A stretch of 64,000 nt of DNA from Myxococcales bacterium (GTDB taxonomy: Bacteria > Myxococcota > UBA727 > JABDBI01). Positions 1,107 to 63,444 of this stretch are shown here, one piece after another (the stretch's first letter is position 1; each line of letters begins with the position of its first letter). Made by a program: the position numbers and the translations under genes. The stretch is from positions 22,043 to 86,042 of the forward strand of contig JAHFEF010000004.1 in NCBI GenBank assembly GCA_023248545.1, given 5' to 3'. The notes beneath the pieces are model-generated. The model did not search any database, was not told where the DNA came from, and was given only the letters and a program-made list of their open reading frames with translations.

Positions 1107-1985
1107 TTAATCAAACACCACAATCTGATTACCGCCAAGGCGTTTGGCAGCCGATAAAGCTTTATCGGCACGTTCTAAAAGCGACATCGCGAGCTCATCT
1201 TGAATCGACACGCTCGCTACGCCCATCGACAAGTGAATCTGCAGGGGAATCTCTTGGACTAAAATTGGCAAGTGTTTAAACTTAGACAACAGCCGAACCG
1301 CTGATTCAGCGGCATTCTGGAGCGTCGTCATGGGTTCTATCAAGGCAAACGTGTTTTCTGACAAGCGCGCAATAAAATCACCCTGCCGAATCTCGAGTTT
1401 AATACGCTGTGCTGTCTTACTTAAGATGGGATCCGGGCTGGCAAAACGCGCAAAACCGTCGATGTCGATCAACACGAGTGACAACGGCGCCTGATAGCGC
1501 CTGGCACGACCAAACTCTTGTTCCAAAAATTCAAAAAAGACTTCTCGACCCCAAAAGCCTGTTAAACGGTCTTTGACAATCTGTTGGTATTGGGTTTGTC
1601 GACCTAAATCTTCGTTTAAATGCTTGACGATTTTTTCTAATAGAGCCTGATCATTCGGCGAAAAAGCGTTGATTTCAGAACGGCCGAGGCTAATATTTCC
1701 AGAGACCAGCAGCGAGTTTAATTTGGCGTGTTGACCCACCCGAGGCTCAGATTTTCCGAGCAAAAACGCTTGATCCTGCGGCGGAATTGGGCTTGAAAAA
1801 TAGTCGGTTGAAAGACGCAGCAACACGGCGTCGGACTGGGTCATTTCTGCAATCAAAAACGCTGTTTTTTCGTAATTTTGTTCTGCAATCGAAGTGCTTA
1901 GTTCAAGCAAATAAGCCGTTAAGCTCTTTTCTTTGACGTCGCCCAAGCGACGCCCCAGTTTTGAAAACAGCAAAACGTCTTTCAA
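1107..1985 (-). CDS. GGDEF-domain protein with degenerate active site (signature replaced by LSENTF)
   Basis: C-terminal half reads RLTGFWGREVFFEFLEQEFGRARRYQAPLSLVLIDIDGF...GDFIARLSENTFALIEP...RADKALSAAKRLGGNQIVVF. This is the GGDEF-domain architecture, but the R-x-GG[DE]EF position reads RLSENTF. Confidence 0.7.
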   Translation of the reverse strand: MKDVLLFSKLGRRLGDVKEKSLTAYLLELSTSIAEQNYEKTAFLIAEMTQSDAVLLRLSTDYFSSPIPPQDQAFLLGKSEPRVGQHAKLNSLLVSGNISLGRSEINAFSPNDQALLEKIVKHLNEDLGRQTQYQQIVKDRLTGFWGREVFFEFLEQEFGRARRYQAPLSLVLIDIDGFARFASPDPILSKTAQRIKLEIRQGDFIARLSENTFALIEPMTTLQNAAESAVRLLSKFKHLPILVQEIPLQIHLSMGVASVSIQDELAMSLLERADKALSAAKRLGGNQIVVFD

Positions 1986-1988
1986 GCA

Positions 1989-2510
1989 CTACTCCACAAC
2001 TCCCACATATGGCAGGTTACGCATTTTCTGAGCCCAATCGAGTCCATAACCTACAACAAACTGATCAGGGATTTGAAATCCACAAAAATCTATTGCGATT
2101 GTACCCTGATTTTGGGCAGGCTTTTCAAGCAAAGCACACAAAGAAACGCTTTTAGGCTCTCGCGTCTTGAAATTGTCTAGCAAATACTTGGCGGTGAGTC
2201 CCGTATCGACAATGTCTTCGACCAACAAAACATCCCTGTTTTCAATCGGCCGTGTGAGATCCTGCGTAATTTGCACCACGCCTGAAGACTCAGTAGCCTC
2301 CCCATAGGAAGACACGCCAATAAATTCGATTTCAACTGGAACAGAGATTTTTCGGCACAGATCAGCCAAAAACAAAAACGAGCCTTTCAGAACCCCAACC
2401 AATACAAGCGGCTCTTTGACACTGGCATAGTGAGCCGATATTTCTTTGCCGAGCTCAGCGATACGCGTTTGGATCTGCTCCGAAGATAAGATTACTTTAA
2501 CAGTATGCAT
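1989..2510 (-). CDS. hpt: hypoxanthine phosphoribosyltransferase
   Basis: 173 aa. PRPP-binding motif VLLVEDIVDTGLT. Typical Hpt length and end (GYGLDW...R.LPYV). Confidence 0.9.
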   Translation of the reverse strand: MHTVKVILSSEQIQTRIAELGKEISAHYASVKEPLVLVGVLKGSFLFLADLCRKISVPVEIEFIGVSSYGEATESSGVVQITQDLTRPIENRDVLLVEDIVDTGLTAKYLLDNFKTREPKSVSLCALLEKPAQNQGTIAIDFCGFQIPDQFVVGYGLDWAQKMRNLPYVGVVE

Positions 2511-6815: not shown

Positions 6816-7265
6816 CTATTTTTTTAACAATTTACAATCACACTGAACATCGAGGCCATTCTGGGCTTCAAACGTGGTATTAATAGAAATTTCAGACAAA
6901 TTATTATCACCTAAAAAAGCTGTTTCGAGGCCATTCACGTCCAGACAGGCAATTGCTACCGAATTATTGCAGCGCACCAAAGCACGATGGGGTTGCACCA
7001 CATAGGCTGCTGGTACGTTGCAAAAGTCTAGATTGATTCGAACAGGTGATTCTCTCTTGGACGCAATTTCAACAACAATTATTTGTTGAGCAAGTGGGGT
7101 ATATCCCAATTGAAGTACTATTTCTTGAGCAGCGTTTTGTGACTTGATTTGCTGCTGGGAGTATTTCTGCGCCAAGGCGGTTGCTTCTTCAAGGCTAACC
7201 GCCCGCAAACAAACAGCCGCTAGCGTTCCCAATAAACAAATACCAACAAAATGCTTAGAACTCAT
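6816..7265 (-). CDS. hypothetical secreted protein
   Basis: 149 aa. N-terminal signal-like HFVGICLLGTLAAVCLRA. No recognisable domain. Confidence 0.5.
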   Translation of the reverse strand: MSSKHFVGICLLGTLAAVCLRAVSLEEATALAQKYSQQQIKSQNAAQEIVLQLGYTPLAQQIIVVEIASKRESPVRINLDFCNVPAAYVVQPHRALVRCNNSVAIACLDVNGLETAFLGDNNLSEISINTTFEAQNGLDVQCDCKLLKK

Positions 7266-7274
7266 GAACCAGCC

Positions 7275-7700
7275 TTACGGATTATTTTGCAAAGTCTCAA
7301 TCCCTGATTGAGTTGTCTTTATCTCTGCTGTGAGGGTAGCGTTCAGGGCTCTTGCTGAAGCAATTGTGGTGTTAATAACCTCGGTTCGTGCCTCCGCCGG
7401 TATCGCTTCCAACATGGCAACAACTGCCTGTTGGTTATTCAGCTCCATCTTTTTGTTCGTCAGTAAATTTTGGAGTCCCTGAATATGATCCACCTTGTTT
7501 TGATATGCATAATAAGCATTCATTGCCCTGTGAACACTCTGTTGAGCAAGATCAACAGATCCGCCAACACTCAAAGCCTGCGTTACGCTCTTGATAACAT
7601 TCAATGTAGTTTCAACGGGAGTTTCTTCCGCCAAAACGCCCTGAGAAACCAATAACAAAATTCCGATTACCATTTTTACGTTTTTCATAATTTTCTCCAT
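7275..7700 (-). CDS. hypothetical secreted coiled-coil protein
   Basis: 141 aa. Signal peptide MKNVKMVIGILLLVSQGVLA followed by helical, heptad-like sequence. Confidence 0.5.
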   Translation of the reverse strand: MEKIMKNVKMVIGILLLVSQGVLAEETPVETTLNVIKSVTQALSVGGSVDLAQQSVHRAMNAYYAYQNKVDHIQGLQNLLTNKKMELNNQQAVVAMLEAIPAEARTEVINTTIASARALNATLTAEIKTTQSGIETLQNNP

Positions 7701-8710
7701 TTTTGTACGTTGTTTGCAGCCTCTTCGAAATAACTTTGTAGCCGTTCTACCAGTAGCTTCTCATTTTCAGCGAGGCCCTTTAGTTCAGGTTCAAACTCTT
7801 GCCTCACCACGTAAGACAGATGTTTCATCCGATGAGCTTCTGCATAATAAGACCTAAACTTTAACATATTAGCGAAAGCCCTTTGGATTGTATCTTGAGA
7901 GGCCATTTGGGAAGCCAATAGCTCCATTTCAAACTTCACTTCCGAGTTGCTTTTTCCCGTTTCATCATGTGCTTGGTATTGAGAAAACACATGATTAACA
8001 AGTTCTTTCTCCGAGGCTGGCTTTGCAGCCAAAACTGCCTGAGTAATTTCTAGAATATTGTATCCTGGCAAAAATGCAAACGACAACATCGAGGCAGCAG
8101 CACCCCAGGTCTTATCCAACTCATGGGCGTAATCCATGAGTTCTGGAAGAGGTATGACATCAGCATGGATACAAGCTTTTCCGGTCAGACCAGACAGAAC
8201 GTAGTTTTTGTGGCTCGTTACAATCACCACACGATAGTTCGCCAATAGCTTAACCGGGATATTTCCCAGTTGACCCACCAAAAACACGGTATTCTCCGTA
8301 TTATTCTCTCTTAAGACCGCTTCCAACACCCGGTCATATTCAGCTGTCGTCCAAGCTTGAGCCTGGGCATCTTGGGCCAACCTGTCGATGCGTATTTCAA
8401 TCACCCGTGTGTTTTTATCGTGTAATGCCATTGCATCAACACGAGCGTCCATCTCCAAACCGGGCTGGCCAATCAAGAAAAGCTGTTTGGGCTGAGTTTT
8501 ATCTTCGAAAAACTTAATTAAGTCAGCCACTTCACGGGGAACAACGCCGTCATGATCTGGGGTCATCAGCTTCACATAAGGCGGAAAATTTTCAGGGTGT
8601 TCGCTTAGATTAGCCACATAGCGATTTAAATCCAGCGCATTCAGATTTAAGTCTCGGCTGGGACAGGCCATCACACACAGCAAAATAAAACTCAGTACTA
8701 TTTTTACCAT
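7685..8710 (-). CDS. hypothetical lipoprotein/secreted protein
   Basis: 341 aa. N-terminus MVKIVLSFILLCVMAC is lipobox-like. Contains LFLIGQPGLE, which only loosely recalls a decayed P-loop. Overlaps both neighbouring genes. Confidence 0.5.
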   Translation of the reverse strand: MVKIVLSFILLCVMACPSRDLNLNALDLNRYVANLSEHPENFPPYVKLMTPDHDGVVPREVADLIKFFEDKTQPKQLFLIGQPGLEMDARVDAMALHDKNTRVIEIRIDRLAQDAQAQAWTTAEYDRVLEAVLRENNTENTVFLVGQLGNIPVKLLANYRVVIVTSHKNYVLSGLTGKACIHADVIPLPELMDYAHELDKTWGAAASMLSFAFLPGYNILEITQAVLAAKPASEKELVNHVFSQYQAHDETGKSNSEVKFEMELLASQMASQDTIQRAFANMLKFRSYYAEAHRMKHLSYVVRQEFEPELKGLAENEKLLVERLQSYFEEAANNVQKWRKL

Positions 8711-9330
8711 GCGAACCCCGTATGGATGGCCGGCACGAAATTAAATTTATTTTCCGCAAAAGCCAGCTGGGATCCAGTCACCACATCCCAGTTGTATTCG
8801 ACACCCGTTTTGACCCCGATCACCAAACCGGTTTCGAACATACGTTCCCAGCCTGCATATAGAGACGGCCTGATGCGAATGGCATGGCGTGTGTCATTGA
8901 ATCCCTGAGCCTCTTGCGCGTAAATCCCCGCTTGGGTCCATAACTCTAAGTAAAAGCTCGATTTGGCCATCCATTCTGTCAATCTCAATTTCATACCCAG
9001 GCCAGCCAAAACCGACCCCTGGTTCGTAACCCGGTTGTTAAAATTAAACTGCGTGATGGCCAACTGGTTCGAATCAATCGACACTGGAAATATCAATTTA
9101 AAATAAGGGTTCAAAGCCACCTGGTAATCGAGTGAGAGCCGACCATTGATGAACGGATCTGCGCTGAAATTCAAAACCATTTTATGTGCAGCCGCACGGT
9201 ATCCATAGGCTTTGGGATCGATATCAACGAGCAATTCAATCAGATCAGGCGTTGCCTCAAGGTGACGTTCATTTTGATTTTCAGCCTGTGCCGCAAAAAC
9301 AAAAAATAATACTGACAAAACAAATCTCAT
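8704..9330 (-). CDS. putative outer-membrane beta-barrel protein
   Basis: Signal peptide MRFVLSVLFFVFAAQA (ATG 9330), alternating-hydrophobicity strands, terminal ...IHTGFAW typical of OMP C-termini. Confidence 0.55.
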   Translation of the reverse strand: MRFVLSVLFFVFAAQAENQNERHLEATPDLIELLVDIDPKAYGYRAAAHKMVLNFSADPFINGRLSLDYQVALNPYFKLIFPVSIDSNQLAITQFNFNNRVTNQGSVLAGLGMKLRLTEWMAKSSFYLELWTQAGIYAQEAQGFNDTRHAIRIRPSLYAGWERMFETGLVIGVKTGVEYNWDVVTGSQLAFAENKFNFVPAIHTGFAW

Positions 9331-37602: not shown

Positions 37603-39492
37603 CTATTGATTATCGGCCTGGACACAAAGAAAACTTGCGCTGGTACTGCATGACATACTATTACTGTAGCTCCAGCTGTCATTGGGATTCGCTTGCGCAC
37701 CATAGAAGGTTGATTGATTGGAGCTCCATCCCAGACAGTTTGTCGTAATGCCCCCGACAGGAATTGCAAGATAGATATTTGCGGGTGTTCCAGCAAAAGC
37801 CCCCCAAAATCTAACTGATGGGATATTCGTCCACTGGGTAATGCAATCAAAATTTGCAGTGCCTGGTGAGGTTGGACAGGAAGGCGTGGCCGATGTCGGG
37901 ATTCCTAACGAAACCATTTTGCCTGGCACACCGGAACCTGCAAGAATGACATTGCGTTTGTTGTCTACCGTGCCACCTACAGACAAAAGATGCTGATAGG
38001 CCGATGCGTTTGGAGCATCTGAATCACTTAAAGCACCCAACATCGCCACCCAACTATCATTGCCAAAGCCATAATTTTTAGTGGCCTCTGCCTGGCAAAT
38101 GGCATCCCCATCCTTCACACTGCTAAATGTCCCAGTGCCCGGAGTATAAGCCCTCTGAGTTAAAAAAACATATCTTGGGGGATTCCCACAGGTTCCTTGC
38201 CCCGCATTGGCAGGATCCAGGTTACAAATTTGGCCTCCTGTGCAGGATGTTGCGCCAGTTTGAACACCGCAAATGCACTGTCCTAGCGTATTGCAAGTCG
38301 TATTGGCTAAGACCGATTTACTGCAAAAGCTCTTGGCGGCAGTGAAGAGAGAATCTGGAATACAATGGGTTGCCGTTTGAGCTACACACACTCCAGAGGT
38401 ACACATATCCTGGGTCCCATTGACGAGGCAATCCGAATCTTTTCCGCATGGACAGACACCTTGGGCGTTGCAAATTGCACTGTTTGCGCAAACACCTGTG
38501 GCCCCAGCTCTGCAGTTTGTACCTGACTGAGCGTTACATCTGCCGCTTTGGCAGGTCTGAGTCGTGTCTGTGCAATTACCAGCGCCACTGCCTGTACATG
38601 CGTTTATTTGGCAGGTTCCAGAAATACAAGCCAGGTTGCTTCCCAGCGAAGCATCACAATCCTTGGAGGCCGTACACGTTTTGGGAACGCAGGTTGGAAG
38701 GGCTGGAGCAGTTCCGGCCGTACACAGTGAGCCTGGCAAGGTGGTTGCACAAGTATTATTGGCCACGATACAATGTGCCGAGGTTTGAGCTGTGCAACTA
38801 TAATTGCTGCAGACGGAATTCCCTGGGCACTCTGAATCGGCCGTACAAGTCTGAGTGATACACTTTCCCGTAGCGACAGCACAGATCTGACCCTGATTCA
38901 TGCTACAGTCCAAATTCTGAGTGCAACTTGCTTTCACACACCGATTTGCGTTGCAGACCAGGCTTGCACTACAATCAGCGTTTGTATTACAACCACAAAA
39001 GCCGTAGCTGCCAGATACGGGTATGCAAGCCGTATTATTTGTGTTGGCATTCTCAATGCAAGCAGCATGGGTTTTACAGCCAGCGCTCGCAGATTGTTGT
39101 GTGCACTGGCCATTGAAGCAAATATGGGACGTATTGGTACAATCGCTCTGGGTTTTACAAACATTAGCCCCACAGACTCCATTGATACAAACTTGGGTAG
39201 TACCACACACGAAACCCTGTTTGCACTTCTGCGCTGTTTCGGGTTGACACTTGCCACTCGCACCGCTGACCTGGCAAGTTTGCTGGCTGGCACAAACATC
39301 CGTCGACGACTTAGGATTACAGTTTTGTTTGGACTGGGCCGTACACACTCCATCCACGGGCAACTGGGTGTCTGAGCAAGCACCCGCTAATGCAATCTCG
39401 GAATCTGTCCGGGAATCTGTTAGCCCACCGGTAATGTTACAAGAAAGAACCAGAACAAGACCTAAAGGCAACAAACATCGAAATCGCATCAT
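37603..39492 (-). CDS. secreted/lipoprotein Cys-rich repeat protein with C-terminal DUF1554/endostatin-like module (tentative)
   Basis: MMRFRCLLPLGLVLVLSC signal. Roughly 400 aa of repeats of the type C..(D/N/S)..C......C...G.C. C-terminus YVFLTQRAYTPGTGTFSSVKDGDAICQ...CLGWSS...SFLCVQ recalls DUF1554. Confidence 0.6.
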   Translation of the reverse strand: MMRFRCLLPLGLVLVLSCNITGGLTDSRTDSEIALAGACSDTQLPVDGVCTAQSKQNCNPKSSTDVCASQQTCQVSGASGKCQPETAQKCKQGFVCGTTQVCINGVCGANVCKTQSDCTNTSHICFNGQCTQQSASAGCKTHAACIENANTNNTACIPVSGSYGFCGCNTNADCSASLVCNANRCVKASCTQNLDCSMNQGQICAVATGKCITQTCTADSECPGNSVCSNYSCTAQTSAHCIVANNTCATTLPGSLCTAGTAPALPTCVPKTCTASKDCDASLGSNLACISGTCQINACTGSGAGNCTDTTQTCQSGRCNAQSGTNCRAGATGVCANSAICNAQGVCPCGKDSDCLVNGTQDMCTSGVCVAQTATHCIPDSLFTAAKSFCSKSVLANTTCNTLGQCICGVQTGATSCTGGQICNLDPANAGQGTCGNPPRYVFLTQRAYTPGTGTFSSVKDGDAICQAEATKNYGFGNDSWVAMLGALSDSDAPNASAYQHLLSVGGTVDNKRNVILAGSGVPGKMVSLGIPTSATPSCPTSPGTANFDCITQWTNIPSVRFWGAFAGTPANIYLAIPVGGITTNCLGWSSNQSTFYGAQANPNDSWSYSNSMSCSTSASFLCVQADNQ

Positions 39493-39582
39493 AAATAGCG
39501 AATCCCCCTGATCTAAGTGTCTATGAAATAGCCATTGAAAATCAAGCATAGGACTTGCCTTTGTTCAGCATCTCTCCTATAG

Positions 39583-44434: not shown

Positions 44435-47400
44435 TTAAGGAGTCTGTAACACAGCAAGTACCATACTTGCAGCCTCGCGCACATCGACATCTGAATCAGT
44501 TAGACACGTTGCAATCTGCTTGCGAATCGTTGGATCCGTGGGCTTAATCGCACCCAGAGCCGAAATCGCATTCAGGCGCACATCGGCATTTGAATCAGTT
44601 AGGCACCCTGCAATCTGCTTGAGAATCATTGGATCCGTGCACTTAATCGCACCCAGAGCCCGAATTGCAGCCGAGCGCACAAAGGGGTCTGAATTCGTGA
44701 GTTTAATCGCACCCAGAGCCTTAATTACAACCCGGCGCACAAAGGAATTTTGATCAGCTAGGTACCCTGCAATCTGCTTGAGAATCGTTGGATCCGTGGG
44801 CTTAATCGCACCCAGAGCGTTAATTGCAACCAGGCGCACATCGGCATTTGAATTAGTTAAATACCCTGCAATCTGCTTGAGAATCGTTGGATCCGTGGGC
44901 TTAATCGCACCCAGGGCATCAGTTGCAACCCAGCACACATCAGCGTTTGGATTCGTTAGGTATGCTACAATCTGCTTGAGAATCGTTGGATCCGTGGGCT
45001 TAATCGCACCCAGAGCCACAATTACAGCCCGGCGCACATCGGCATTTGAATCAGTTAGACACAGGGCAATTTGCTGGTGAATCGTTGGATCCGTGGGCTT
45101 AATCGCACCCAGAGCCTTAATTGCACCCTGGCGCACACCGACATTTGAATCAGTTAGACACAGGGCAATTTGCTGGTGAATCGTTGGATCCGTAGATTCC
45201 ATCGCACCAAGAGCCTCAATTGCAACCAGGCGCACATCGGCATCTGAATTAGTTAGGTACCCTGCAATCTGCTTGAGAGTCGTTGGATCTGTGGGTTTAA
45301 TCGCACCCAGAGCATTAATTGCAACCTGGCGCACATCGGCATTTGAATCAGTTAGACACGTTGCAATCTGCTGATGAATCGTTGGATCCGTGGGTTTAAT
45401 CGCACCCAGAGCCACAATTACAGCCCGGCGCACACCAACATCTGAATCAGTTAGGAATGCCGCAATCTGCTGATGAATCATTGGATCCGTGGGCTTAATC
45501 GCACCAAGAGCATTAATTGCATACCAGCACACCATGGCACTTGAATCAGTTAGACACGCTGCAATTTGCTGGTGAATCGTTGGATCCGTAGGTTCCATCA
45601 CACCCAGAGCGTTAATTGCAACCTGGCGCACATCGGCATTTGAATCAGTTAGACACGTTGCAATCTGCTGATGAATCGTTGGATCCGTGGGTTTAATCGC
45701 ACCCAGAGCATTAATCGCAGCCTGGCGCACATCGGCATTTGAATCAGTTAGACACGTTGCAATCTGCTGATGAATCGTTGGATCCGTGGGTTTAATCGCA
45801 CCAAGAACACCAATTACACTCTGGCGCACATCGGCATTTGGATTCGTTAGGTACCCTACAATCTGCTTGAGAATCGTTGGATCCGTGGGTTTAATCTCAC
45901 CCAGAGCCACAATTACAGCCTGGCGCACACCAACATCTGGATCAGTTAGACACGCTACAGTCTGCTGGTAAATCTCAGAATCCGAAGGCACCGACGGTAA
46001 ATCCTCCATCCCAAGTATTGCGCCCAATCGTTCGAAAGACCTCAGTTCTTGAAGTGTACTTGGCAGGTCTTGAGCCACCAGTCGCTCTTTCACAGAAAAT
46101 CCCGATTCAAGTTTAGCTCGAACTAACTCATGGATTTTTTTCGGCAGTCTTACAGCTGCGGCATTCATAATCAGTATATCACGATTAATAATGATATCGA
46201 GATCAAATTTCTTTGCCAAATACTGGTTAAGATCTATGCGCTCAGTGCTCGCTTCTGCTTCTAACTTCCGATACAGGTCAACATGTGCCTTTCGAAAATT
46301 AGGCAGATCCAGGACTCGAAGGTTATTAGAGCGAATCACCCTGAGCTCCAATACAGTCCCTTCAGGGCGAGCATACTTGGCAGGTATCGAACGCATTTGG
46401 GCGGTATAGGTGCCCGCTCCGAAATGAGCTGCTCCCTGTTTTTTAGGGATACTGGCAATCAACCCATTTCGGATCATGGTGAGCACATATTCGAGCTTCG
46501 GTGTTCCGTGATAGAGCAGACCCTTGTCCGTATACTTCCATTGAAATTCAGCAGGACTCACTAAAAATTTATCGATGGTATGGTCGCTCACCCGACGCGT
46601 ATCGATTTTCTGATTTCGCGTAAATTCAGGAATCAGAGGCAGGTTTTTCTCATTTCTGGCCCCAAACATCGAAATCTGATGCACCAAATGTGCTATGGGA
46701 TCTCCCTCTCGAGGAACACTAAATCGATTATGCGCCGCTTCAAAACGAGCATTTCGGATCATTTCTTCAAATCGTTTCAGGGGCCTGTCACCCTCGAGCG
46801 GAATCTTTTTATTAAGTTTAGCCAATATAAGCTCTAGTTCTTGAATTAATATCTGAGCTCCCTTTGTCGACGGCTTTAGGAAGGGCAATTCTAACAGTGG
46901 TCGAAGCATCCGAATGCATTGTTCGTCTCGATTGTCTGCATGTTCTGGAGACACATACTCGATTTCGCCTTTCAAAAATCGCCCTAAAGTGCCAGGAACA
47001 CCTTCGACAAACTGAGTCCCAGAAGCAGATGAAACGGGGAAAGCGAGCCAGTCCAATGGACTACCACCTTGGCCCATAGAGCGTTCCAACTGAGCTTTGC
47101 GTTCGACAACGTCGCCCACCGGCAAAACACTTCTGGTCAGCACCGAGGTTTTGTCTGCCTGCGGCATGAGTTGGTCAGTGGCACTCTCGATAAATTGTTT
47201 GGTTATCTGCTTAATCTCTTCACGTTTATTCGGAGTGCAGCCACTCGAAAAATCGACAGAGATATCTAAATCACTCCCAATTCCTAGGGCAGATAGTTTG
47301 GGCAGGTCTTGATCTATGGGAAAAATCTCGAACAGTGCACCGGGAATAGGCTTTCGACTAGCTCCTTGAATAATGCGATTCAATACATTTTCTGTTGTGT

Positions 47401-58850: not shown

Positions 58851-59254
58851 AAGATTTATACCAAGAGCTGATTTTAGATCACAACCAGCATCCACATCAT
58901 TATGGCGAGTTGCCTGCTTACACCCATACAGCTCACGGTCACAATCCATTATGTGGGGATGAACTTGATGTCTATTTGATTCTGGAAAATAATCGCATCC
59001 AAAATATTACTTTTACTGGCCAAGGCTGCGCCATCTCGAAAGCTTCAGCTTCGATGATGACCGACGAATTACTGGGTAAAACGCTTGAAGAAGCCCAAGA
59101 GCTCTTCGAAAACTTTCATGAGCTGCTCACAAAAGAAGGCGCCACAGGCAAGAAGCTTCAAAAAGCCCAGGTATTTGCTGGTGTGAGGGAGTTTCCTATT
59201 CGCGTCAAATGCGCCACGCTGGCTTGGCATACTTTTCAAGAGGCAAAATCATAA
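58844..59254 (+). CDS. sufU: SUF-system NifU/IscU-like scaffold SufU
   Basis: GHNPLCGDELDVYL, GQGCAISKASASMMTD, RVKCATLAW. Confidence 0.85.
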   Translation: MLEDLYQELILDHNQHPHHYGELPAYTHTAHGHNPLCGDELDVYLILENNRIQNITFTGQGCAISKASASMMTDELLGKTLEEAQELFENFHELLTKEGATGKKLQKAQVFAGVREFPIRVKCATLAWHTFQEAKS

Positions 59255-59796
59255 TGCATATGTATGGCGGCGGCCTAAATGTTCAATTAACCCGAGATTG
59301 CAAGGCGATTCAAATCCCGAATGGGGAAACCATGACGCTCGAGCAGGGCCATGAAGTTTATATTACCCAAGTTTTGGGCGGCATGTTCACCGTCGAAACC
59401 GAATGGGGCTATTTGGTCAGAATTGATGGCCAAGATGCTGACGCCTTAGGCCAAGAAATTCCCAAAGAACGCCAAAAACCAGACTGGTCGCAATTCGCCA
59501 GCTTAGAAGATGCTGCCTGGTCGCAACTTAAAACCTGCTACGACCCCGAAATCCCGGTGAATATTGTCGAACTCGGCTTGGTCTATAAGCTCGAAATCGT
59601 TGGGCATGATTTGCGCGTCCAAATGACCCTTACAGCCCCAGGCTGCGGCATGGGTGAAGTTTTAAAGACAGACATTGAAACCAAATTGCTGGATATCCCA
59701 GGCATCGAATCTGTAACAATCGATTTGACTTTCGATCCGCCCTGGAGCAGCGAAATGATGTCCGATGCAGCCAGACTGCAACTCGGAATGATGTAA
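59254..59796 (+). CDS. sufT: SufT-like Fe-S assembly protein (DUF59 with N-terminal extension)
   Basis: ATG 59254 (TAATG overlap with sufU). LKTCYDPEIPVNIVELGLVY...LTAPGCGMG. Confidence 0.6.
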   Translation: MHMYGGGLNVQLTRDCKAIQIPNGETMTLEQGHEVYITQVLGGMFTVETEWGYLVRIDGQDADALGQEIPKERQKPDWSQFASLEDAAWSQLKTCYDPEIPVNIVELGLVYKLEIVGHDLRVQMTLTAPGCGMGEVLKTDIETKLLDIPGIESVTIDLTFDPPWSSEMMSDAARLQLGMM

Positions 59797-59840
59797 ATCG
59801 TTGCGGCTACCAACAAAAAGCTCCCATCAACACGGCAGGC

Positions 59841-61079
59841 TTGAATCTGAGCTATCATGTATCTGATATGCTCAAACACATTGAATTCGAGAGGCATGGC
59901 ACACCCGATTCTGACACTGAACAACGTTCCATCTCTCCCGGAGGTGTGACCGATGATGATACTGAGTTAAACACCCCCTCTACGCAACGATCTTTGTCGC
60001 CGGTAGCGCCGGAGAGGCTGAAAAGTCCAGTGATGCCCAGTGCTGATCTGAGCTCACAAGAAATCAGACGTTTGTCGAACGAGATAGCCCACCAACCTGA
60101 CATTGATCCGGATTTTGCTCACTATGCAGGCCTGGAGTTATTGGCGCGGCATTTGGCATACGCCGAATCTTTGCCGCTGGGATCAAAAGTGGATCTGATG
60201 GTCAATGGGCGGCCAGTCACTTATCAATACCGTGAATCAGCCCAGTTTGGCAGAAGCCTGATTGAGGGCCATATGACGGCCATGGCCCTGACACCGGAGC
60301 AGGAAGATGATCCATCCCCACCGATTATCCTGTTCCATGGAACAGTAGTGGATCCTTTATCGCATCGATGGGCGGGGAACACCTGGCTCAGCAATTTTGA
60401 CCCGCGGGGAATTGGCCGAAGCTTGTTAAATTGGCGAGGGACAGGTCTGGATGAGCAGGTGAATAACTTTTTTGATAGATACACAGGGAGAGGAAGCCAC
60501 AAGGCCATCGTAGTAGGCCATAGTTTGGGAGGCACTCTGGCTAACTTGGCAGCCATTTATAAGCCCAATTGCATAGAAAAAACGGTGACGTTTAACGCTC
60601 CGGCCGTTCATTGGTATGCCAAGCAGCAGGCGGATTCAACGCCTCACCAGCAGCGGCCTAAAGTTTGGCGATTCGAACCAGCCATCAACGGCGCGCCTGC
60701 AGACTTCATTGCCCAATTGGGTTCTCGTAAAGACGGCGCAACCATTTTGATGAATACTCCACCGACAACAACTTTGGGGGCTCATTCAGCCCCTCTGTTT
60801 TTGAACAATGCGCCGTTCGTGAATGAAGGGCCGGGTACTTTTTCGGAACGCCTCACGCGGGCAGAGAAGGCAGGTCAAGCACTCACGCAGCATTTTAATG
60901 AACAACGCCCTTATTGGAGAAATCTTTTTCCTGCCCATGGGAGTTTGGCTGTACAAACAATAGGTTCTTGGTTCGCTTATCCTCTGACCGGTGCTGTGCT
61001 AAAAGTCTTTAGGCCTGTGATAGGGGCCTTTAGGACCATCAGAGTTCTTGGCCGTTCCGGACGAGGTTTGATAAAATAA
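59841..61079 (+). CDS. lipase-like alpha/beta hydrolase with disordered Ser/Pro/Asp-rich N-terminus (effector-like)
   Basis: Nucleophile elbow AIVVGHSLGGTLANLAA (GHSLGG, class-3-lipase-like). TTG start in the track, first ATG at 59868. No signal peptide. Confidence 0.6.
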   Translation: MNLSYHVSDMLKHIEFERHGTPDSDTEQRSISPGGVTDDDTELNTPSTQRSLSPVAPERLKSPVMPSADLSSQEIRRLSNEIAHQPDIDPDFAHYAGLELLARHLAYAESLPLGSKVDLMVNGRPVTYQYRESAQFGRSLIEGHMTAMALTPEQEDDPSPPIILFHGTVVDPLSHRWAGNTWLSNFDPRGIGRSLLNWRGTGLDEQVNNFFDRYTGRGSHKAIVVGHSLGGTLANLAAIYKPNCIEKTVTFNAPAVHWYAKQQADSTPHQQRPKVWRFEPAINGAPADFIAQLGSRKDGATILMNTPPTTTLGAHSAPLFLNNAPFVNEGPGTFSERLTRAEKAGQALTQHFNEQRPYWRNLFPAHGSLAVQTIGSWFAYPLTGAVLKVFRPVIGAFRTIRVLGRSGRGLIK

Positions 61080-61089
61080 TAACAGCCTC

Positions 61090-61279
61090 TCTTGCCAACT
61101 GCACTTCGTTACGGCAATTCTCTCGAGATAACGGGGTGTAGCTCAGCTTGGTAGAGCGCTTGGTTCGGGACCAAGAGGCCGCATGTTCAAATCATATCAC
61201 CCCGAGATTTCTACCTTTGGCTTCACCCGCGGTGTAATCTCCCTCTGCGCCTGTTCCATCTCAGTTTGGAGCAATTGGC
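61090..61279 (+). repeat. duplicate B1: tRNA-Pro plus about 40 nt upstream and about 70 nt of polA-like 3' end
   Basis: Matches 62252..62441 at a constant offset of 1162 nt. I count 6 mismatches over the first 170 nt. Identity decays over the last 20 nt. Confidence 0.9.
61132..61205 (+). tRNA. tRNA-Pro (CGG), duplicated copy with a C50-A64 mismatch in the T stem (possibly decaying)
   Basis: CGGGGTGTAGCTCAGCTTGGTAGAGCGCTTGGTTCGGGACCAAGAGGCCGCATGTTCAAATCATATCACCCCGA. Clean cloverleaf except that the T-stem 3' strand is CATAT instead of CATGT. Confidence 0.75.
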
Positions 61280-61304
61280 CAGATTGCAACTTGGAATGAT
61301 GTAA
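61278..61304 (+). repeat. duplicate A': relic of the last 8 codons plus stop of sufT
   Basis: gccagattgcaacttggaatgatgtaa versus 59770..59796 gccagactgcaactcggaatgatgtaa (25/27). Both read ARLQLGMM*. Confidence 0.75.
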
Positions 61305-61342
61305 GTTGACATTAAAAAAGCCTATCGACTAGAATATTCATT

Positions 61343-62239
61343 ATGAAACTGGTTTTATCGCTGATTGCGATTGCTTTTTTTTCGAGTTGTGGCTCTGGGA
61401 CGTCATCTGGCGGACCCTCTGTGTCGACGGGCGCTTCGACCAAGTTTGCGCTGACGCCTGCAAAAACGCTGACAAACTCAAGTGTCATTCTTCAATCGAT
61501 TACACTCAATGACGATGGAACTGGAACGCTGGTTGTTTCAGAACCCCCGAATACCTATACGTTTGCACTGAATTACCTGTTCGACACAGGAAGTTTTAGT
61601 TCAATTAACACCAGCGACTCTGTGACCGTCACGTCTTCAGACAACAGCTCGGCGCCAGCTCAAATATCGCGTCAAGCCGCTGGAATAGGAAATATCAAAG
61701 GCTATCTCCAATTTGTCATCAAAGGCGCCTATTACTCAGTAAAAGCTTATTTCCACTATACAAACCAAGTGGGCGGCTCCACGCTCCAACAGGCCATCGA
61801 TGATCGGCCTCAAGATATGCAATACAATGGCTCTGCCACGGTCACAACGCCTGCTGCATGCGATCCAACAACGCTGGATACTGCGACGACAGCTACCCTT
61901 AAAAACTGTTGTGTTTATACACAAGACGATTTGAAAATCCTTAACCACCCAAGTTGCCAGTCTTGCAGAACGGATCCAACTTGTTTGGGAACAGCAACAA
62001 CAACTACTACTACTACAACAACTACAAATGTCTGGCCCAAGTGCACAACGTGTAACATTGAGTTCCAGGCCAATTTCAGCCTCAACAGCATCTTTTTTGT
62101 CACTGCGACAGCCAATTCCTCAGGAACCTACCAAAGCTCAAGCTATGGTTGCAGCGGTGCAGATTGCAACGCCATCAAAACTTGCCTTCTGCAAAACAGC
62201 ACCTTAAAAAACCAGTACATTGGGTATACCTGTCAATAA
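61343..62239 (+). CDS. hypothetical lipoprotein with Thr10 tract and Cys-rich C-terminus
   Basis: MKLVLSLIAIAFFSSCGSG (lipobox). ACA/ACT run at 61997..62026 encodes TTTTTTTTTT. Confidence 0.6.
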   Translation: MKLVLSLIAIAFFSSCGSGTSSGGPSVSTGASTKFALTPAKTLTNSSVILQSITLNDDGTGTLVVSEPPNTYTFALNYLFDTGSFSSINTSDSVTVTSSDNSSAPAQISRQAAGIGNIKGYLQFVIKGAYYSVKAYFHYTNQVGGSTLQQAIDDRPQDMQYNGSATVTTPAACDPTTLDTATTATLKNCCVYTQDDLKILNHPSCQSCRTDPTCLGTATTTTTTTTTTNVWPKCTTCNIEFQANFSLNSIFFVTATANSSGTYQSSSYGCSGADCNAIKTCLLQNSTLKNQYIGYTCQ

Positions 62240-62251
62240 TAGCAATTCAAG

Positions 62252-62441
62252 TCTTGCCAAAACCACTTCGTTACGGCAATTCTCTCGAGATAACGGGGTG
62301 TAGCTCAGCTTGGTAGAGCGCTTGGTTCGGGACCAAGAGGCCGCATGTTCAAATCATGTCACCCCGAGATTTCTGCCTTCGGCTTCACCCGCGGTGTAAT
62401 CTCCCTCTGCGCCTGTTCCATTTCTGTTTGCAACAACCGGC
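62252..62441 (+). repeat. duplicate B2 (the copy contiguous with the intact polA-like gene)
   Basis: See B1. Confidence 0.9.
62294..62367 (+). tRNA. tRNA-Pro (CGG)
   Basis: Same as the copy at 61132 but with an intact T stem (GCATG/CATGT). Anticodon loop TTCGGGA. No encoded CCA. The last 9 nt overlap the stop region of the convergent polA-like ORF. Confidence 0.9.
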
Positions 62442-63444
62442 TAATAGCTTCAGTGTCCTGCTCTAAGCACTCGACCACTAATTCGTCGTGAATCATGTTG
62501 ACTAAAAAAGCATTTTGAAAAGACGCGAGGCCATTGTGAATGCGCACCATGGCCAGCTTGCAAATCTCAGCAGCCGTACCCTGAATCGGCATGTTTTTGG
62601 CAATGCGTGAGATATCTTGTGTCTTGTCTAAATAGAGCCGCCGACCCAGGCGTGTTTCAGCATAGCCCCGGGTATAAGCCAGATGAACACAGGAATCTAA
62701 ATAAGATTTAATGGCCGCATGCTTTTTGAAATATTGGTCCAATAACTGCTGAGCTTCATGCACAGAAACAGAAAGACTGCGCGCCAGAGAGTTTGCCCCC
62801 ATGCCATAAATCAACCCAAAATTAATCGCCTTGGCTTTGTCTCGATATTTGATATCGCCAAATAAGTCTTGGGCTACTTGGCCATGCAAATCTAAATCTT
62901 GTTCAAAAGCTTTTAGAAAAACAGGATCTCCTGAAAAATCGGCTAAAATACGCAGCTCACACGCCGCGTAGTCTGCTTTCACTAATTTTTTGCCCGCTGG
63001 GGCGATCAAACACGCTTGAAAACGTGAATCAGAAGGCAAGTTTTGAATATTAGGAGAGTGACAGGCGACTCGACCCGTCGACGTCCCCTCCGGTTCAAAT
63101 GTCGCATGAATACGCCAAGTCTGGGGGTGAATGTATTCTAGAAAATTATGGCCATAGGTGCCGATTAATTTGGCTGCTTCGCGGTATTTTTTCAAAGCCC
63201 TCTGAGCTTCCTCGAGACAGTCGACACGCTGAAGTGCCTGTGTGACTTCCAACGGGCTATCCAAGTTCAAAGTCGATTCGCCAAACAAATCCAAATGCTG
63301 CGGACCGGCTAGAAGCTTTGAGGCCGTCTCGCGAGCATCTCGCATTTGAGCACGAACTTCATCGAGCACACTCTGCCACCGCTCACGATGAACATAGAGC
63401 CCATGAGCACTCATGCTCCTAAAGATTAGATTAAGTCGTTCCAA
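62359..63444 (-). CDS. stand-alone family A (Pol I-type) DNA polymerase domain, no exonuclease domains
   Basis: 361 aa. Motif A VKADYAACELRILADFSGD, motif B RDKAKAINFGLIYGMG, motif C LVNMIHDELVVEC. The upstream gene is unrelated. Confidence 0.75.
   Translation of the reverse strand: MERLNLIFRSMSAHGLYVHRERWQSVLDEVRAQMRDARETASKLLAGPQHLDLFGESTLNLDSPLEVTQALQRVDCLEEAQRALKKYREAAKLIGTYGHNFLEYIHPQTWRIHATFEPEGTSTGRVACHSPNIQNLPSDSRFQACLIAPAGKKLVKADYAACELRILADFSGDPVFLKAFEQDLDLHGQVAQDLFGDIKYRDKAKAINFGLIYGMGANSLARSLSVSVHEAQQLLDQYFKKHAAIKSYLDSCVHLAYTRGYAETRLGRRLYLDKTQDISRIAKNMPIQGTAAEICKLAMVRIHNGLASFQNAFLVNMIHDELVVECLEQDTEAISRLLQTEMEQAQREITPRVKPKAEISG

Follow-up and report, generated by a model that had tools for sequence, protein, structure and literature searches.

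Two unrelated genes stacked in tandem between duplicated ends of sufT, tRNA-Pro and a polA-like gene in an uncultivated myxobacterium

The convergent end of two operons in an uncultivated Myxococcales bacterium is occupied by sufT, a tRNA-Pro(CGG) gene and a polA-like gene. We analysed this site in a stretch of 64,000 nucleotides (GenBank assembly GCA_023248545.1, contig JAHFEF010000004.1, positions 22,043 to 86,042 of the forward strand), called the window throughout, whose own numbering is used for all coordinates unless another contig is named. Between the intact sufT and the intact polA-like gene lie two cargo genes, separated by an additional copy of the tRNA gene and by short stubs of both core genes. 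The left border of each cassette is called A or A', and the right border B1 or B2. The features of the locus, in order, are as follows.

59254..59796, plus strand: sufT, the last gene of the sufBCDSU-sufT operon (FeS_assembly_P, Pfam PF01883, E=1e-16)
59770..59796, plus strand: A, the last 8 codons and the stop codon of the resident sufT (repeat D3)
59841..61079, plus strand: cargo 1, a lipase/alpha-beta-hydrolase-like gene with a GHSLGG nucleophile elbow and weak Pfam matches to Abhydrolase_6 and Lipase_3
61090..61279, plus strand: B1, comprising the leader, tRNA-Pro(CGG) copy 1 and the polA 3'-end stub (repeat D1, aligned to B2)
61132..61205, plus strand: tRNA-Pro(CGG) copy 1 (ARAGORN; 60.8 bits with the Rfam tRNA model)
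61197..61280, minus strand: polA' stub, a stop codon and 27 codons (GQLLQTEMEQAQREITPRVKPKVEISG before the stop), by codon and orthologue comparison a functional-looking allele unlike the resident polA
61278..61304, plus strand: A', a stub of the last 27 nt of sufT (repeat D3)
61306..61335, plus strand: predicted sigma-70-type promoter of cargo 2 (TTGACA, 18-nt spacer, TAGAAT; 11 of 12 consensus matches)
61343..62239, plus strand: cargo 2, a lipoprotein gene; its product has the signal peptide MKLVLSLIAIAFFSSC, a poly-Thr tract and a C-terminal half rich in Cys
62252..62441, plus strand: B2, comprising the leader, the intact tRNA-Pro(CGG) and the 3' end of the intact polA-like gene (repeat D1)
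62294..62367, plus strand: tRNA-Pro(CGG) copy 2 (ARAGORN; 66.9 bits with the Rfam tRNA model, every stem paired)
62359..63444, minus strand: polA-like gene, 361 aa, with a family A polymerase domain only (Pfam DNA_pol_A, E=2e-81)

Nested duplications of this kind had been proposed previously from the letters of the window, and a repeat finder recovered them: B1 and B2 are 190 nt long, 94% identical and spaced by 1162 nt, and A and A' are identical at 25 of 27 positions. None of 100 shuffles of the 64-kb window contained a match for either repeat. Each B consists of a 42-nt leader, the 74-nt tRNA gene, and the last 27 codons and the stop codon of the polA-like gene, the stop codon being located within the 3' end of the tRNA on the opposite strand. 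The first 170 positions of B1 and B2 differ at exactly six sites (61099-61101, 61196, 61213 and 61218), the same number as in the original prediction, and six further differences are found in the last 20 positions. The longest exact repeat between B1 and B2 is 94 nt, and all flanks taken together differ at 14 of 217 positions (~6.5%). The G>A difference at 61196 gives the non-canonical T-stem pair C50·A64 in tRNA copy 1 under the Rfam model, which locates the C-A mismatch that had been noticed before and accompanies the lower tRNA score of this copy. A possible leftward extension of B into the stop codons of both cargo genes (AATAATARCA) was dropped because of its P value of 0.2.

The joint between the two cassettes has a simple structure. 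The polA stub runs straight into the sufT stub, which reverses the chromosomal order of the two genes and makes the sequence circularly permuted. B1 and A' overlap by 2-3 nt (GCC), as the GCC at 61278-61280 serves both as the last codon of the polA stub (Gly27, reverse complement) and as the first codon of the sufT stub (Ala), resulting in a microhomology of 3 nt, or possibly 4 nt with GCCA. In the repeat register, the insert corresponds to 61280-62441, that is, 1162 bp with the lipoprotein gene as its sole gene. No recipient DNA is missing from the locus: sufT, the lipase-like gene, the tRNA gene and the polA-like gene are all intact, and 190 nt are duplicated.

A mis-assembly of strain variants, already considered in the original prediction, could in principle produce such a tandem, and the source invites the question: the window derives from groundwater metagenomes of a single study, with a coverage of ~4-5x. 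We found the B1/A' joint in four independent contigs. Two of them, from samples other than that of the window, are MEGAHIT k141 contigs: L191 corresponds to window 58864-63191 at 99.86% identity and spans from sufU to polA through both copies, and L192 corresponds to 59216-61928. The other two are Logan per-run contigs, of the runs X1 (61230-62314) and X2 (61230-61928), with an even depth of 4-5x over both cargo genes. Because the 94-nt longest exact repeat is shorter than k=141, the assembly graph settles the order of the tandem units in L191, and because only 3 nt are common to the two sides of the joint, the joint itself is beyond what any assembler would make. We therefore regard it as extremely improbable that two strain variants of the slot were stitched together, or that a one-cassette chromosome coexists with a free 1162-bp circle, as a 1.2-kb circle devoid of a replication function would not be maintained near one copy per genome in both samples. 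Apart from the low coverage, what speaks for an artefact is that contigs built at k=31 are unable to link over the 94-nt identical core, and that the contig depth of the lipoprotein segment (61305-62251) is ~0.8 of that of the lipase segment (59797-61089), with 3.9 versus 4.7 for X1 and 3.8 versus 4.8 for X2. This ratio might reflect a minority of cells that lack the 1162-bp unit through recombination between B1 and B2, or noise at 4x.

The border alleles bear on the origin of the insert. Within codons 1-26 of the polA stub, five synonymous and three non-synonymous nucleotide differences separate it from the resident gene, and both differences between A and A' are synonymous. Synonymous changes thus make up seven of the ten coding differences, which has a P of ~0.001-0.003 against random substitutions; one of the synonymous cases is a double change, TTG>CTC, by which leucine is kept. 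The stub residues Val5, Gln26 and Gly27 are those of the working polA in the related contigs L193, L194, L195 and L001 (the orthologue of L194 reads ...VGQIL...PKVEISL and that of L195 ...VGQLL...PKVEVG at the end, with L193 and L001 similar), and the stub codons GGC CAA and GTA are the same as in L194. At both sites of difference between A and A', the bases of A' are those of the L001 sufT allele. The polA stub has at most 2-3 private changes, all of the synonymous type, and no indels, whereas the resident polA has three amino-acid replacements and several silent changes in the same 27 codons. Judged from these alleles, the derived copy is the resident working gene, and it is the non-functional stub that looks ancestral. 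The polarity of change alone was rejected as a test between a fossil and a foreign copy, since a fossil keeps ancestral states too; it is the asymmetry that carries the argument, because a neutral fossil should change at least as fast as a selected gene and the stub has changed less, the reverse of what decay in place would give. The pattern supports the view that the borders are two functional alleles from two different genomes, and we infer that the stub belonged, not long ago, to a functional polA in a different genome. This agrees with the earlier proposal that the DNA came from a related genome.

The differences are also unevenly distributed along B. Only 3 of the 158 core positions (61102-61259) differ, compared with 6 of 20 at the right edge (Fisher P = 6e-5), and three more differences lie within the first 12 nt. 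A near-identical core with diverged edges fits what would be expected for a crossover or heteroduplex in the core.

The two cargo genes within these common borders are unrelated, as had been predicted, with no mutual blastp match. For cargo 1, gene callers place the start at the ATG at 59868, which gives a protein of 403 aa (P0002). Only two homologues were found among 5.8 billion proteins, with 44% and 30% identity, and the motifs are conserved in the alignment. The closer of the two (44%) is encoded at the end of contig L188 (region 6889-7403 and 8001-9221), where its neighbours are a gene for a SpoU methylase and the toxin-antitoxin pair ParE/PhdYeFM, outside the sufT slot, indicating that the lipase-like family moves between contexts. 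Cargo 2 is identical to the protein P0001 and matched no Pfam or NCBIfam family. Its single full-length homologue among 1.84 billion cluster representatives is P0125 with 48% identity, and the N-terminal Cys is conserved in the homologue alignment. The predicted promoter of cargo 2 begins 2 nt past the stop codon of A'. Structure predictions of the two cargo proteins were of low confidence, with pLDDT (predicted local distance difference test) scores of 47 and 38. We therefore describe their functions as serine hydrolase-like and Cys-rich lipoprotein, at no finer level. A role as surface or effector genes is only suggested, by the lipobox signal peptide in one and by a disordered N-terminus devoid of a secretion signal in the other. 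The poly-Thr tract of cargo 2 (61990-62025) is apparently variable in the population: of the six positions at which L191 departs from the window, four lie at 62011-62021, and the contig of run X3 differs by three letters in 62012-62241.

We compared the interval with the corresponding sites in the closest relatives, which are Myxococcota metagenome-assembled genomes (MAGs) and metagenome contigs with polA genes 60-75% identical to that of the window. sufT and polA are convergent neighbours in the window and in L001, L194, L195 and L198-200.

L198-200, polA 68%: sufT stop, 4 nt, tRNA-Pro (94.6% identical), polA
L001, polA 71%: sufT stop, ~14 nt, polA; no tRNA
L194, polA 72%: a 145-aa secreted-protein gene in the slot (1679-2116, minus strand); no tRNA
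L195, polA 70%: a 131-aa homologue of the L194 gene (68% identical; 7077-7472, minus strand) and a Fic/DUF4172 gene (7556-8674, plus strand)
L002, polA 62%: tRNA-Pro at the end of polA; a BI-1-like gene instead of sufT
L003, L196/197 and L201, polA 60-69%: other neighbours

The sufT/polA interval has five different states among relatives, and it is a hot spot at the species or genus scale. The compact arrangement of L198-200 is probably the basal state. The original prediction had gone further in suggesting that strain-specific genes are exchanged at this slot, and that part found no support here: all four samples with this organism have the same double arrangement, and the variation is at the species or genus level (polA 66-75%). 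Duplicated ends of sufT or polA were looked for in the slots of L194, L195 and L001, and none were found. The location at convergent operon ends, where insertions are harmless, may alone explain why the slot is permissive. The SufT protein itself has 94-96% amino-acid identity to SufT of L001, L194 and L195, and scans of metagenome and genome contigs with it gave only relatives of ~50% identity; SufT is too conserved to inform on the slot.

No gene for an integrase, transposase or recombinase was found between 37.6 and 64 kb of the window, a region that takes in about 22 kb upstream of the site, in line with the earlier claim that no dedicated recombinase is involved. From 37.6 kb to the end of the window, the genes are two unassigned open reading frames (ORFs), the ATP synthase and suf operons, and genes for an enoyl-CoA hydratase, a HEAT-repeat protein, a TonB-like protein and polA.

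We lean towards the explanation that a fragment of a relative's locus was closed to a circle and that one homologous crossover within B then integrated it, in the manner of a Campbell-type integration. The resident chromosome would have had the order sufT, lipase-like gene, leader with tRNA-Pro, and polA; the lipase-like gene is here taken as the resident cassette. The donor would be a double-stranded fragment of the same locus from a relative ~93% identical in the flanks, in which the slot held the lipoprotein gene with its own promoter, and the fragment would extend from 27 nt before the end of sufT to 27 codons into the 3' end of polA. Illegitimate joining at the 3-4-nt microhomology GCC(A) could have closed this fragment to a 1162-bp circle, which one RecA-type homologous crossover in the ~160-nt near-identical B core (leader, tRNA and the first 20 polA codons) would integrate. 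The product would be the Campbell-type tandem of sufT ending in A, lipase-like gene and B1, followed by A', lipoprotein gene, B2 and polA. A second tRNA-Pro would have been gained by this event, and its T-stem mismatch picked up since then.

Several observations weigh against this scenario. Neither a donor-type genome (sufT-lipoprotein-tRNA-Pro) nor a single-cassette strain was found, and the genome collection contains no homologue of cargo 2. Both cargo genes occur in one study only, the groundwater study; no run of usable depth has one cargo gene alone, as each usable-depth run with one of them holds both, and the coverage of runs X3 and X4 is too low for interpretation. Codon usage and GC of both cargo genes are inside the range of the neighbouring genes, so that there is no compositional foreignness; this fits a close donor and adds no independent support for transfer. 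The divergence of ~30% in the last 17-20 nt of B, compared with 0% in the adjoining 41 nt, needs a conversion or heteroduplex tract, which we assume. The evidence consists of assembled contigs, in which hybrid or excised forms would escape notice. No competence, natural transformation or other route of DNA uptake is known for this lineage. Moreover, the same end structure could equally arise from a duplicative insertion of linear DNA or from a duplication in place followed by imports.

The former of these would be homology-facilitated illegitimate recombination (HFIR), or a similar duplicative insertion, of a linear relative-derived fragment carrying A', the lipoprotein gene, tRNA and polA. 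The homology anchor would be in polA to the right of codon 27, and the left end would be joined at GCC(A) to codon 27 of the resident polA, so that B1 would be wholly resident, and B2 and part of the present polA imported. The end structure would be identical, borders formed by two functional alleles are accounted for, and the 3-4-nt microhomology at the joint is within the 3-10 bp typical of HFIR (PMC3240628). However, recipient DNA of a size similar to that of the insert is normally deleted in HFIR (PMC3240628), whereas none was lost here and 190 nt were duplicated. The donor B would also be expected to pair with the resident B and bring about a plain homologous replacement, and the near-identical 158-nt core of B1 and B2 is not predicted for two diverged alleles. 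We consider this route unlikely. The duplication in place would be a tandem duplication of the segment from A to B by microhomology slippage in an ancestor, with a later replacement of one cargo gene and with flanks that were overwritten by imports or diverged. A permuted joint with short microhomology is precisely what a tandem duplication leaves, such duplications arise commonly and can be triggered by transformation (PMC3784515), and the arrangement is the same in all samples. We nevertheless judge it quite unlikely, as it takes at least three extra events (the exchange of one cargo gene and a change of allele on each flank), leaves only 27 nt of left homology for replacing the second cargo gene, and fits poorly with a stub that is ancestral-like, with synonymous or orthologue-matching states and no indels, next to a derived working copy.

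A further candidate is that a recombinase supplied in trans inserted an integron-like cassette, or a small element that targets tRNA genes, in a site-specific manner. It is favoured by the standing of tRNA genes as classic targets of integration and by the direct repeats on either side of the insert. An att core would be short and confined to the 3' end of the tRNA, whereas the repeat covers the 42-nt leader, the whole tRNA and 27 polA codons, and the 27-nt sufT stub in the insert marks it as ordinary chromosomal DNA of the same locus. With no recombinase in the 1162-bp insert or in the surveyed part of the window, and no comparable scars in other slots, such an integration is very improbable.

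The locus has features in common with several known systems. A route in which linear DNA is first ligated and afterwards integrated through one crossover has been described (PMC3240628). As in Campbell integration, the insert lies between direct repeats of the homology segment, the joint is permuted, no element-encoded recombinase is involved, and the homology of ~160-190 bp is adequate for RecA. Unlike in the laboratory cross, we are dealing with a fixed natural product in an uncultivated Myxococcota population, where the circle is inferred and the donor would be an allelic version of the same variable slot, so that two alternative cargos are stacked. The locus also resembles a minimal mobile element (MME), in which conserved flanks enclose different whole genes without mobility genes (PMC3082526): sufT and polA flank a slot with different whole genes in relatives and no mobility genes, and homologous recombination is the likely means of incorporation. 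MMEs, however, swap cassettes by double crossover, whereas here the existing cassette stayed, a second one joined it in tandem, and pieces of sufT and polA remain as stubs, and the variation is seen between species or genera rather than strains. HFIR shares with the locus the combination of a homologous segment and an illegitimate joint with 3-4-nt microhomology, but it couples insertion with deletion where we observe duplication. Transformation-triggered merodiploidy in Streptococcus pneumoniae (PMC3784515) likewise yields tandem duplications via exogenous DNA that is partly repeated in the chromosome; those are 100-900 kb with borders at insertion sequence (IS) repeats, compared with 1.16 kb and units with different genes in the present case. 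The tRNA-targeting islands with tyrosine integrases share the insertion beside a tRNA gene, the direct repeats and the duplicated tRNA sequence, and differ in having an integrase; moreover, the repeat here extends past the tRNA on both sides, and the insert contains stubs of both core genes.

Several further observations concern the tRNA and polA-like genes. The exact tRNA sequence had no match in the genome-contig collection. In L198 (4636-4720), as well as in L199 and L200, the 4 nt between the sufT stop and tRNA-Pro(CGG) leave no room for a promoter, and this tRNA is probably co-transcribed with the suf operon; in contrast, both tRNA copies of the window carry the conserved 42-nt leader. 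Within B2, L191 differs from the window by C>T at 62284 and G>A at 62297 (L191 positions 3421 and 3434), the former change being present in the X1 contig as well, and the latter would put an A4·C69 mismatch in the acceptor stem of tRNA copy 2. These differences could be population polymorphism or low-coverage errors, and gene conversion between B1 and B2 is another option. The NCBIfam matches of the polA-like gene are confined to the polymerase part of Pol I, and across this Myxococcota clade (the window, L001-L003 and L193-L201) the gene is conserved as a family A polymerase domain standing alone, ~350-375 aa long and devoid of exonuclease domains; more distant relatives are ~540 aa. Its stop codon lies within the 3' end of the tRNA-Pro on the opposite strand in L002 and L198-200, as it does in the window. 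Its start overlaps the TonB-like gene in the window, and in L195 the gene is downstream of exbB-exbD-exbD. The small secreted protein of L194 and L195 belongs to no family, and its gene overlaps the polA stop codon and occupies the place of the tRNA.

In the wider neighbourhood, two ORFs with no Pfam match are found beside the ATP synthase and suf operons, at 37603-39549 (minus strand, 648 aa) and 52468-54813 (minus strand, 781 aa). The gene at 44435-47845 (minus strand) encodes a 1136-aa protein made up mostly of HEAT repeats, whose residues 433-494 marginally match the PARP catalytic domain (27.6 bits; cut-off 26.7), an unusual pairing for a bacterium.

One could imagine that the event is not singular, and that circles from the slots of relatives are repeatedly added at sufT/tRNA-Pro/polA by crossover in the tRNA block. 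We are strongly doubtful of such recurrent recombinase-free stacking. If it were true, each circle would bring in one gene together with a promoter for it, a tRNA-Pro and stubs of the two core genes, and could be lost by recombination between B1 and B2. The site would then be a functional analogue of an integron array that works by general recombination alone, through which the population would hold and shuffle alternative surface or effector genes.

The locus is a well-preserved natural example of known recombination processes in a poorly known lineage and not a new mechanism. For the annotation of MAGs, it advises caution, since duplicated tRNAs accompanied by fragments of neighbouring genes can be real and are not necessarily assembly errors. 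Its value lies in being a legible natural record of a variable intergenic slot gaining a gene without mobile-element machinery, the history of the event being preserved in the core-gene stubs, the 3-nt microhomology joint and the allele pattern. It suggests that alternative slot contents can be stacked and not only swapped, and that a genome may thereby have, briefly, both variants together with a spare tRNA.

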